Shown: piece after piece, positions 19,219 to 21,745 of the stretch
Layout: each line of letters begins with the position of its first letter
How positions within the stretch are numbered: position 1 is the first letter of the stretch
IMG/VR virus record: IMGVR_UViG_2880412407_000011
Direction: 5' to 3' (one strand)
Length of the DNA stretch: 64,000 bases
DNA from: a virus
Lineage: Duplodnaviria; Heunggongvirae; Uroviricota; Caudoviricetes
Translations under genes and position numbers: made by a program
The notes under the pieces: model-generated
The model's database searches: none
What the model was told of the DNA's origin: nothing
What the model saw: the letters and a program-made list of their open reading frames with translations, nothing else

Positions 19219-19739
19219 TGGCATTCAGAATGAGTGAACAAGCACGGACCATAAAAATTTATAATCTGCTGGCCGGAACTAATGAATTTATTGGTGAAGG
19301 TGACGCATATATTCCGCCTCATACAGGTCTGCCAGCAAACAGTACCGATATTGCACCGCCAGATATTCCGGCTGGCTTTGTGGCTGTTTTCAACAGTGAT
19401 GAGGCATCGTGGCATCTCGTTGAAGACCATCGGGGTAAAACCGTCTATGACGTGGCTTCCGGCGACGCGTTATTTATTTCTGAACTTGGCCCATTACCGG
19501 AAAATGTCACCTGGTTATCCCCGGAAGGGGAGTTTCAGAAGTGGAACGGCACAGCCTGGGTGAAGGATACGGAAGCAGAAAAACTGTTCCGGATCCGGGA
19601 GGCGGAAGAAACAAAAAACAACCTGATGCAGGTAGCCAGTGAGCATATTGCGCCGCTTCAGGATGCTGCAGATCTGGAAATCGCAACGGAGGAAGAAATC
19701 TCGTTGCTGGAAGCATGGAAAAAGTATCGAGTGAGGTAG
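19218..19739 (+). CDS. tfa: tail fibre assembly protein Tfa, 3' end replaced by IS insertion
   Basis: 173-aa lambda Tfa-like ORF; last two codons and stop supplied by the IS left end at 19732. Confidence 0.8.
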
Positions 19740-19795
19740 CCTGAGTTTAACGGACACTCCTTCCTGAAATAGAATGGCATCAGAAGGAGCTAATA

Positions 19796-20098
19796 ATGAG
19801 CAGAAAAACCCAACGTTACTCTAAAGAGTTCAAAGCCGAAGCTGTCAGAACGGTTCTTGAAAATCAACTTTCGATCAGTGAAGGCGCTTCCCGATTATCT
19901 CTTCCTGAAGGCACTTTAGGACAATGGGTTACCGCCGCCAGAAAAGGGCTCGGTACTCCTGGTTCCCGCACGGTGGCTGAACTGGAATCTGAAATTCTGC
20001 AACTGCGTAAGGCGTTAAATGAAGCTCGCCTTGAGCGAGATATATTAAAAAAAGCAACAGCGTATTTTGCACAGGAGTCGCTGAAAAATACGCGTTAA
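19796..20098 (+). CDS. IS3-family transposase OrfA (IS600-like)
   Basis: 100 aa HTH protein MSRKTQRYSKEFKAEAV...; identical copy on the minus strand at 26866-27168. Confidence 0.85.
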   Translation: MSRKTQRYSKEFKAEAVRTVLENQLSISEGASRLSLPEGTLGQWVTAARKGLGTPGSRTVAELESEILQLRKALNEARLERDILKKATAYFAQESLKNTR

Positions 20099-20133
20099 TC
20101 GAACAATGGCGACAACAATTTCCCATTGAAGCG

Positions 20134-20952
20134 ATGTGTCAGGTATTTGGTGTATCCAGGAGCGGTTATTACAACTGGGTACAGCATGAACCCTCAGACA
20201 GAAAACAAAGTGATGAGCGGCTAAAACTGGAGATTAAGGTGGCACATATCCGCACTCGCGAAACATATGGAACCCGGCGGCTCCAGACGGAGCTGGCAGA
20301 GAATGGCATCATCGTTGGTCGTGACCGACTGGCACGTCTTCGTAAGGAGCTAAGGCTACGCTGTAAGCAGAAACGCAAGTTCAGAGCGACTACGAACTCG
20401 AACCACAATCTGCCAGTTGCGCCAAATCTGCTGAACCAGACGTTCGCTCCTACAGCACCAAATCAGGTCTGGGTGGCGGACCTGACGTATGTTGCCACAC
20501 AGGAGGGATGGTTGTACCTCGCTGGCATCAAAGATGTTTATACGTGCGAAATTGTCGGCTACGCCATGGGAGAGCGCATGACAAAAGAGCTGACAGGTAA
20601 AGCTCTGTTTATGGCGCTCAGGAGCCAGCGCCCACCTGCCGGGCTAATCCACCACTCTGATCGAGGTTCACAGTACTGCGCATACGATTACCGGGTCATA
20701 CAGGAGCAGTTTGGTCTGAAAACATCAATGTCGCGTAAAGGTAACTGTTACGACAACGCTCCGATGGAAAGCTTCTGGGGAACGCTGAAAAATGAGAGCC
20801 TGAGCCACTATCGTTTTAATAACCGGGATGAAGCCATCTCAGTAATACGGGAATACATTGAGATTTTCTACAATCGTCAGCGTCGTCACTCTCGTCTGGG
20901 GAATATCTCCCCGGCAGCCTTCAGGGAAAAATATCATCAGATGGCTGCTTAA
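20134..20952 (+). CDS. IS3-family transposase OrfB (DDE integrase domain)
   Basis: 272 aa; HHSDRGSQY and DNAPMESFWG motifs; identical copy at 26012-26830. Confidence 0.85.
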   Translation: MCQVFGVSRSGYYNWVQHEPSDRKQSDERLKLEIKVAHIRTRETYGTRRLQTELAENGIIVGRDRLARLRKELRLRCKQKRKFRATTNSNHNLPVAPNLLNQTFAPTAPNQVWVADLTYVATQEGWLYLAGIKDVYTCEIVGYAMGERMTKELTGKALFMALRSQRPPAGLIHHSDRGSQYCAYDYRVIQEQFGLKTSMSRKGNCYDNAPMESFWGTLKNESLSHYRFNNRDEAISVIREYIEIFYNRQRRHSRLGNISPAAFREKYHQMAA

Positions 20953-20995
20953 AAAAAGAACAAATGGTAGTGTCCGCTATTGCCAGTACACCTCA

Positions 20996-21058
20996 GGGTA
21001 TTGCTGAACCGTGTTGATACGTCAACTGCACAGGATATTGAATGGCCAGCACTGCCGT
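20996..21058 (+). other. displaced 3' remnant of tfa
   Basis: Translates LNRVDTSTAQDIEWPALP*, the expected lambda-type Tfa C-terminus, directly after the IS right end. Confidence 0.6.
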
Positions 21059-21157
21059 AGGGTAAAACATATAAATTCTATAATTAGATGTATCTTTCCA
21101 TTTACGGCAAGGAAGGGGGCTTGGAAGACGTAAAGCATCTCACACCGAGATTATTTT

Positions 21158-21745
21158 TTATATGTCAGGTGTCTGAAGTTTTGCTTTGGCTCTTAAAATG
21201 GTTTGCCGCGAGGTTTTGAATTCCCGGGCAATGGCACTTATACTTACACCTGACTTAATTCGTTCGAATACCACCTGTTTCTGTTCTTCATTTAACACAG
21301 GTGGTCGACCAAAACGTCCTGCGCCGCGGGCTCTTACTATCCCGGAATGAGTGCGTTCAAGTAAAAGGTCTCGTTCAAATTCAGCGACTGCTGAAATTAC
21401 TTGCATCATCATTTTTCCTGTTGGACTGGTCAGGTCAATGCCCCCCAATGCTAAGCAATGCACTCTGATACCTGTTTCGGTCAGTTGCTCCACTGTTTTC
21501 CTGATATCCATTGCATTACAACCAAGGCGATCCAGTTTTGTCACAATCAATTGATCACCACATTTCAGGCGAGCAAGCAACCGGTTAAAACCAGGACGCT
21601 CACTGGTTGCTGCTGAGCCGCTAATGTGTTCTTCGATTATTTGCTGAGGTTTGATTTTAAAACCTGCACTTTCGATTTCCCGGCGTTGATTTTCGGTGGT
21701 CTGATCCAGCGTTGATATCCGACAGTAAGCAAAAATTCGAGACAT
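21158..21745 (-). CDS. pin: serine recombinase / DNA invertase (Pin/Gin/Hin family)
   Basis: 195 aa; N-terminal [12 protein letters not shown]... with catalytic Ser context, C-terminal HTH; adjacent to tail fibre genes. Confidence 0.85.

Follow-up and report, generated by a model that had tools for sequence, protein, structure and literature searches.

Among the closest described systems are PinQ of the Qin prophage and PinR of the Rac prophage, small serine recombinases of Escherichia coli K-12. PinQ and PinR were reported to invert the P segment of e14, blocking adsorption of phage T2 (Kirigo et al., NAR 2025; PMC12529663), and are cited as the first recombinase-activated anti-phage system. 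A gene of the same type, here called pin, encodes a protein of 195 aa on the minus strand at 21158-21745 of a 64,000-nt stretch of Caudoviricetes DNA (IMG/VR record IMGVR_UViG_2880412407_000011), the whole of which is referred to as the window. It faces a tail fibre assembly gene, tfa, that is interrupted by the insertion sequence (IS) IS600, and positions 19100-22400 are 100% identical to five chromosomes of the E. coli O121:H19 lineage. An earlier note on this DNA had described pin as a Pin/Gin-family invertase, perhaps left over from a host-range switch or acting on sites elsewhere. The account favored here, with a probability of roughly 72%, is that two separate things meet at this locus: an IS600 hit in tfa, and a decayed module of a resolvase gene and its recombination site (tnpR/res) in the b-region of a lambdoid prophage.

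The Pin protein has Resolvase (PF00239, E = 4.4e-36) and HTH_7 (PF02796, E = 3.8e-11) domains and is identical to K-12 PinQ at 193 of 196 positions (98.5%), but to PinE of e14 at 72 of 196 (37%). PinE, a Mu-like Gin homologue and the invertase of pro483 are, by eye, much closer to one another. Among solved structures, the best match of the Pin protein is Gin (E = 4.5e-29). No NCBIfam family could be assigned to the recombinase, as its best matches (Mpi invertase and XisF) are far under the cut-offs.

Relatives were sought in species-representative genomes and in plasmids, and 1728 plasmid records contain homologues. Outside the Escherichia prophages, homologues are 55-83% identical, and the close relatives (66-83%), which have a conserved array upstream, are resolvase genes of plasmids and the tnpR genes of complete Tn3-family transposons. 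The assignment to the Pin/Gin invertases is, therefore, not supported. The Shewanella homologue (L023, 77% identical) is divergent from the gene for a 1033-aa protein with DDE_Tnp_Tn3 (E = 1.4e-148) and DUF4158 domains. The unit is bounded by 38-bp inverted repeats (L023 2824-2861 and 12214-12251) that are 97% identical and run from GGGG to ACGCTAAG (full repeat, GGGGTCCGCTTGGAAAACGGAAAATATCCTACGCTAAG); with its tnpA and these terminal repeats, it is a complete Tn3-family transposon. A Providencia plasmid has the same divergent pair, a 77% identical homologue and an annotated Tn3-family transposase gene, and the copy on an Erwinia amylovora plasmid adjoins parA/parG. In Erwinia phage LS-2018a (L007, 7880-8606), a homologue with 58% identity is located between the large terminase and portal genes, with two small open reading frames (ORFs) after it. 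A fibre switch plays no part in any of these settings.

Homology between the window and these relatives ends at the 3' end of pin; the gene and the res-like region upstream are all that they have in common, and the downstream flanks are not conserved. The Shewanella terminal repeat has no match anywhere in the 64-kb window. A sequence starting with GGGGGCTTGG at about 21112 was considered as a Tn3-type terminal repeat and was rejected as a chance resemblance, given the unconserved flanks and the unmatched Shewanella repeat.

In the relatives, the approximately 130 nt before the start codon contain three pairs of 8-mers, always in the same order. In the first pair, a dyad such as GTCCGAAACCGGTCGGTTTCGTAC, the 8-mers are separated by 8 nt; the spacing widens to 14 nt in the second, and the third adjoins a TATAAT-like element. 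Most lineages have GT[AC]CGAAA as the 8-mer, but it is GTACTAAA in the Erwinia phage, and Sphingobium has yet another version. Upstream of the gene, nine loci have 4-8 half-site matches per 180 nt, against a background of 0.1-0.3, and the plasmid loci L040 (with an enzyme of 83% identity) and L041, which were outside the set from which the matrix was built, still gave 4-8. The location between tnpA and tnpR, the three pairs of different spacing and the overlap with the promoter all argue for reading this array as the res site of the clade. Its half-site also resembles GTCCGAAA of site I of the gamma-delta res.

Several members of the clade show variations on this arrangement. Erwinia phage LS-2018a has a full array in which the half-site has co-varied, in a context unrelated to tail fibres. 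In Erwinia oleae (L027, 1268-2652), two paralogous recombinase genes of the clade are divergently oriented, and each side of the region between them has a half-site array (8 matrix matches). A lambdoid prophage variant in E. coli GCA_910593615.1 (L047, 4874-5922) encodes a recombinase with 86% identity that retains the catalytic arginine discussed below. Its recombinase and proximal array are plasmid-like and its distal array and C-terminus prophage-like, and it looks like a product of recombination or gene conversion.

The corresponding region of the window, on the minus strand at 21754-21857 (alignment A1), overlaps the promoter region of pin and is collinear with the array of the relatives, as expected for a vestige of the presumed res site. 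One of the approximately six half-sites scores above threshold. Homologues of site III (21757-21775) and site II (21788-21817) are found on either side of a -10-like TATGAT (21776-21781), and the site I homologue (21834-21857, minus strand) is decayed. An nhmmer profile made from 11 non-prophage arrays matches the 64 kb significantly only once, over sites II and III alone (21828-21754, E = 1.1e-5). For the site I dyad, the score falls from 24-27 bits in the transposon and plasmid copies to 15.0 bits in L047 and 6.4 bits in the window, the last value being in the random range. The best-kept half-site, ATACGAAA, is located about 10 nt upstream of the pin ATG. Scans of 20900-22700 for terminators and promoters gave nothing above chance.

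Upstream of the vestige, at 21869-21898, there is another dyad, CACAAAATCGATTTTGGGTCTCACCAAAAT, with a three-part structure (CACAAAAT-CG-ATTTTGGG-TCTCA-CCAAAAT). It is conserved in the Escherichia and Shigella copies and absent from the transposon and plasmid relatives. As a candidate crossover site, it was rejected, being Escherichia-specific and outside the region of res homology.

The Pin protein lacks the full catalytic set (Y6, R8, S10, D36, R68 and R71 in Tn3 numbering): it retains Y7, R9, S11 (in YCRISTLDQ) and R73, the equivalent of D36 is Glu throughout the PinQ clade, and the equivalent of R71 is Cys76. This last change is specific to the prophage lineage. All 10 Escherichia and Shigella prophage and phage copies that were read intact have LDRLGC (two further chromosomal copies, L033 and L034, are frameshifted), while LDRLGR is found in 13/13 transposon, plasmid and other homologues as well as in Gin and the gamma-delta and Tn3 resolvases. 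Arginine is present in 112 of the 117 scorable sequences among the best 120 cluster representatives, and the five with Cys are prophage clusters. In Tn3 resolvase, the R71A and R71K substitutions abolished recombination and lowered single-strand cleavage about 1000-fold (PMC2794168).

The O121 allele has also lost Lys144, in frame, from the linker GAG(K)RFGRPP, a rare deletion (10/2594 records) at a position that is Lys in ten sequences of the PinQ clade (alignment A3) and Arg in PinE. The inactivating mutations that the earlier note had considered might, therefore, be represented by Cys76 and the missing Lys144. The recognition region of the helix-turn-helix (HTH) domain (SRQTILR) hardly differs from that of the transposon copies, and the prophage sites thus look decayed rather than re-specified.

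The genes tfa-pin-ydfK-ynfT occur in the same order in the window, in Qin and in phage mEp460. In the viable lambdoid phages mEp460, 2H10 and Tritos, the recombinase gene likewise follows tfa in convergent orientation and is followed by ydfK and then attP/int. In the window, pin converges on tfa from a distance of 97 bp from the tfa remnant, in agreement with the gap of about 100 bp noted earlier, and it is present in a single copy in the O121 genome.

The interruption of tfa is accounted for in detail. IS600 copy a (1264 bp, 19732-20995, plus strand) is full length and sits in codon 172 of the 191 codons of the gene, which confirms the truncation first noted. Its orfA (19796-20098), with an HTH_Tnp_1 domain, and orfB (20134-20952), with rve/HTH_21, are joined through a -1 frameshift, and RefSeq gives it a joined coding sequence (“programmed frameshift”) with a protein accession common to other copies. 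The element ends in 5'-TG...CA-3', with imperfect terminal inverted repeats of 27 nt that are 70% complementary. The window contains a second copy with 100% identity to it.

The target site could be read from the sister strain 2014C-3599, placed in the O121 lineage by 100% identity over two backbone probes, in which tfa is an uninterrupted gene of 191 codons and TATCGAG is followed directly by TATTGCTG. In the window, TATCGAG is followed by IS600, then GGG, then TATTGCTG. Compared base by base, the occupied and empty sites define a target duplication of 3 bp, GAG on the left (19729-19731) and GGG on the right (20996-20998), with one A-to-G difference, so the imperfect trinucleotides pointed out in the earlier note are real. 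Neighboring IS copies have perfect 3-bp duplications, GTA/GTA for the other IS600 copy and GTT/GTT for a nested IS629, showing that the mismatch is genuine and specific to copy a. Its simplest reading is a point change during or after insertion.

The truncated allele (19218-19739, plus strand) consists of 172 authentic codons followed by an Arg codon and a stop from IS600, which contributes two bases of the Val172 codon as well. The intact protein (L001) has 191 aa and that of the window 173 aa, with residues 1-172 identical, so Tfa loses its final 19 residues, LLNRVDTSTAQDIEWPALP; its match to Pfam Caudo_TAP (E = 1.5e-30) covers profile positions 1-111 of 131 only. The displaced 3' end, encoding VLLNRVDTSTAQDIEWPALP and a stop codon and annotated as a partial tfa by RefSeq, is indeed found beyond the IS, but at 20998-21060, two bases to the right of the 20996-21058 given before. 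Because the next gene is convergent, nothing lies downstream in the tfa operon, and the truncation of Tfa is the only direct effect of the insertion.

The insertion is polymorphic within the O121 lineage. Among seven of the eight genomes (all but 2015C-3107), five have the occupied site, 2014C-3599 has the empty site and 2014C-3655 is rearranged. The insertion in tfa is thus a recent event within the O121:H19 lineage.

DNA invertases of the Hin/Gin/Cin/Pin kind act on two inverted 26-bp crossover sites (12-2-12, ...AAACC NN GGTTT...) on either side of a segment by the recombinase gene, with alternative gene ends or promoters inside that segment. The e14 crossover site, with up to three mismatches allowed, has no match in the 64-kb window, and the core AAACCNNGGTTT has one, against 2.1 expected by chance. 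A 26-bp position-weight scan of the same 64 kb peaked at 12.7 bits, compared with 30-33 bits for real pix, hix and gix sites and maxima of 11-20 bits in shuffled sequence. The matrix was made with pix sequences read from L003 and with hix and gix sequences. The window contains no clade-type crossover site, nor is there any stf- or tfa-related ORF between tfa and pin or beyond pin. The absence of gix- or hix-like sites and of an alternative fibre cassette, reported in the earlier note from inspection by eye, is thereby upheld.

From the anatomy, the homology, the decay of the site and the substitutions described above, we infer a direction of evolution and a loss of activity. PinQ and PinR would descend from a tnpR/res module like those of Tn3-family transposons and of plasmid multimer-resolution loci, which would have been captured between tfa and attP of phages of the mEp460 type. 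The module would then have decayed in the prophage lineage, where it has no transposase or terminal repeats, keeps only the promoter-proximal part of res, has an unrecognizable site I and carries Cys in place of the Arg71 equivalent. The O121 allele, in single copy, additionally lacks Lys144. Within the O121:H19 lineage, an intact IS600 transposed into codon 172 of the neighboring tfa. There is no fibre switch at the locus, and very probably there never was one; pin would have no substrate there, and its recombinase activity in this setting is probably weak or nil. Any activity retained would most likely consist of DNA binding or autoregulation at the residual sites.

Several observations weigh against this account. 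An intact ORF is found in 2593 of the 5426 complete E. coli genomes and in viable phages, which argues for some retained function. By sequence, the match of the Pin protein to Gin (104.7 bits) is better than that to gamma-delta resolvase (79 bits). The identification of the array as res draws on position, architecture and conservation. The R71 mutants of Tn3 resolvase were described as “not inert”, and none of them was a Cys substitution (PMC2794168). Finally, inversion of the P segment of e14 was reported to rise from about 30% to 88% when K-12 PinQ, which also has Cys76, was overproduced (PMC12529663).

A further reading, offered tentatively, is that PinQ and PinR are exapted Tn3-type resolvases, minus the catalytic Arg and the crossover site, that act as DNA-binding regulators or as non-catalytic partners modulating an invertase such as PinE. 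If so, the e14 inversion that was reported to depend on PinQ and to protect against phage would have another explanation. If the module still does anything, it may act in regulation, in the modulation of a true invertase or in weak recombination.

A working resolvase or regulator is a rather unlikely alternative. The Pin protein would bind the residual sites and either repress its own promoter, and perhaps read-through from ydfK, or resolve tandem prophages or circular dimers in which the region is present as two direct repeats. The nearly unchanged recognition helix would suit such a role, as would the conservation of the promoter-proximal sites II and III, with ATACGAAA close to the start codon, and the wide occurrence of intact ORFs, inducible phages included. 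The layout of the window, in which tail genes are followed by int-xis-exo as in tandem prophages, could provide something to resolve. However, with a single pin/res copy in the window and in the O121 genome, there is no partner site, the site I score is no better than random and the catalytic Arg is lost.

Still more doubtful is an active enzyme that flips a tail-fibre segment in another prophage, as K-12 PinQ and PinR were reported to do on e14. The Pin protein is nearly identical to K-12 PinQ, whose overproduction increased inversion, and the phenotype depended on stfP, stfE and e14, the inversion giving chimeric fibre proteins by which phage adsorption is blocked (PMC12529663). However, deletion of pinE alone locked the P segment with pinQ and pinR present, and neither an in vitro test nor a test in a pinE-deleted background was found in the main text of that paper (PMC12529663). 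The pix sites of e14, scored with the half-site matrix of the clade, show no resemblance to it, and the published inversion in trans can, therefore, not be rationalized from site similarity; the window has no site of the pix, gix or hix type either. Given the locking of P by the pinE deletion, the dissimilarity of pix and the presence of Cys76, direct catalysis by PinQ should be taken as possible but not established. The O121 allele lacks Lys144 as well.

The O121 background speaks to this alternative as well. In O121 strain 16-9255, iraM, icd and rluE are contiguous, showing that e14 is not at its usual icd site. Action on sites elsewhere, as proposed in the earlier note, thus has a reported counterpart in K-12, but that target is absent from icd in O121. 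Other targets were sought by megablast with a chimeric query consisting of the O121 icd backbone, pinE, a Mu-like gin and a P2-like invertase gene; two earlier backbones had been uninformative, the place counts being inflated by porin and other paralogues and by a phage-end repeat. Beyond the single-copy backbone, each of the eight O121-lineage chromosomes has exactly one extra match to this Hin-type query. It may mark a Hin-type invertase locus or a genuine invertible segment elsewhere.

That pin is the remnant of a host-range switch, left when an ancestral stf/tfa cassette lost its alternative fibre end and its crossover sites, is very improbable: the gene does adjoin stf-tfa, as gin, cin and pinE do, and P2-like and Mu-like small serine recombinases do flank such cassettes, but it is only 37-38% identical to PinE and Gin, it converges on tfa while the pinE and pro483 invertase genes read away from their segments, viable phages have the same tfa-pin-ydfK arrangement, no phage or prophage examined with this recombinase has a second fibre end, its relatives reside in transposons, plasmids and the terminase/portal interval of an Erwinia phage, and the conserved flank, which with the gene is all that is shared, is a res-like array and not a pair of crossover sites. 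The comparison with the e14 pinE/stfE arrangement, suggested in the earlier note, thus brings out opposite orientations.

The only segment of the window bounded by inverted repeats is a product of the insertion sequences. IS600 copy b (24656-27232, minus strand), which has a perfect 3-bp duplication, is inverted relative to copy a and is split near its right end by a nested element of 1310 bp (24693-26002) of the IS3 family with a GTT duplication, presumably IS629-like, judging from its size and OrfB sequence. This element is absent from strain 16-9255, and the window strain is, therefore, different from the 16-9255 reference. The 3.66 kb between the two IS600 copies (20996-24655) contain the tfa remnant, pin, ydfK, ynfT, int and xis. 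In the sister genome 2014C-3655 (L044), this segment has the opposite orientation, with the breakpoints inside the IS copies. The two copies form 1.26-kb inverted repeats, and the flip is the expected outcome of homologous recombination between perfect repeats of this length, presumably dependent on recA. An inverted-repeat-bounded segment is thus present, but not of the kind envisaged in the earlier note, as it has no alternative fibre ends. The polymorphic IS600 in tfa, the IS600-bounded inversion and the nested IS629 are all usable as structural markers for O121:H19.

The locus as a whole forms the right end (b-region) of a lambdoid prophage that resembles Qin and mEp460 and is defective, its terminase gene being partial and its capsid gene having an internal stop. 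RefSeq annotates the O121 locus with gpJ, lom, a tail fibre gene, a 173-aa tail fibre assembly protein and an IS600 transposase (programmed frameshift), followed by the partial tfa, a “recombinase family protein”, ydfK, ynfT, integrase and excisionase. Between 12135 and 32000 of the window, the tail genes (J, lom, stf and tfa) and pin-ydfK-ynfT are followed directly by int-xis-exo-dicB, which is the gene order of a vegetative phage map, like that of mEp460. This layout suggests tandem prophages, the left one without an early region, in which case an attP-like hybrid site should be found at the ynfT/int junction, at approximately 22400-23127. Inside stf, positions 16700-17520 make up a long repeat region rich in Ala, Ser and Thr, in which imperfect direct repeats (20-40 nt each) are numerous, and the Phage_fiber_2 repeats are encoded by two repeats of 107 nt at 17567-17805.

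Insertions near the end of the tail genes are also seen in other strains. In Shiga toxin-producing E. coli (STEC) of the O26 type (L008 and L009), the stf-tfa end of the prophages has been hit by IS elements repeatedly, including an independent IS600 at the stf/tfa junction. In the O26-type strain 10153, IS600 abuts the antirepressor gene, which means that the whole intervening late region has been lost, and in another E. coli (L047), tfa is interrupted by IS66.

The locus itself is ordinary: a prophage that was already defective has, beside a known gene, an IS insertion specific to the lineage. RefSeq annotates the insertion and the gene, the latter only as a “recombinase family protein”. The useful by-products are the resolvase ancestry of PinQ and PinR and their Arg-to-Cys change. 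The proteins of a cited anti-phage system have as their nearest relatives resolvases with a site array of their own, and catalysis in the absence of PinE is the point to establish before building on PinQ and PinR as “invertases”.

Compared with described elements, IS600 copy a agrees with the IS600 of Shigella and STEC genomes in its length of 1264 bp, its TG...CA ends and its orfA/orfB frameshift. Its target duplication has the usual length of 3 bp, with one base different between the two copies, and it has an inverted partner 3.66 kb away. Hin, Gin, Cin and PinE share with the Pin protein the small serine recombinase fold (Resolvase and HTH_7) and the position by tail-fibre genes. In contrast, the window enzyme is only 37-38% identical to them, its gene has the opposite orientation, and the window lacks 26-bp crossover sites and an alternative cassette.

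PinQ and PinR of K-12 and the homologues in phages mEp460, 2H10, Tritos and HannyBb show the same arrangement as the window, with pin-ydfK-ynfT facing stf-tfa beside attP/int, the same Cys at the position equivalent to Arg71 and the same decayed upstream region. Relative to K-12 PinQ and PinR, the window differs by the Lys144 deletion, the IS600 in tfa and the absence of e14 from icd. The TnpR and plasmid resolvases of Shewanella (L023) and of Providencia, Enterobacter, avian pathogenic E. coli (APEC) and E. amylovora plasmids differ more in setting, as the window has no tnpA, 38-bp repeats or par genes, its gene is in a phage b-region, site I has decayed (6.4 versus 24-27 bits) and the catalytic Arg has become Cys. 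Nevertheless, they are 66-83% identical to the Pin protein, with a near-identical HTH recognition region, and their upstream regions are collinear with that of the window, with the half-site pairs and the -10 element in the same order.

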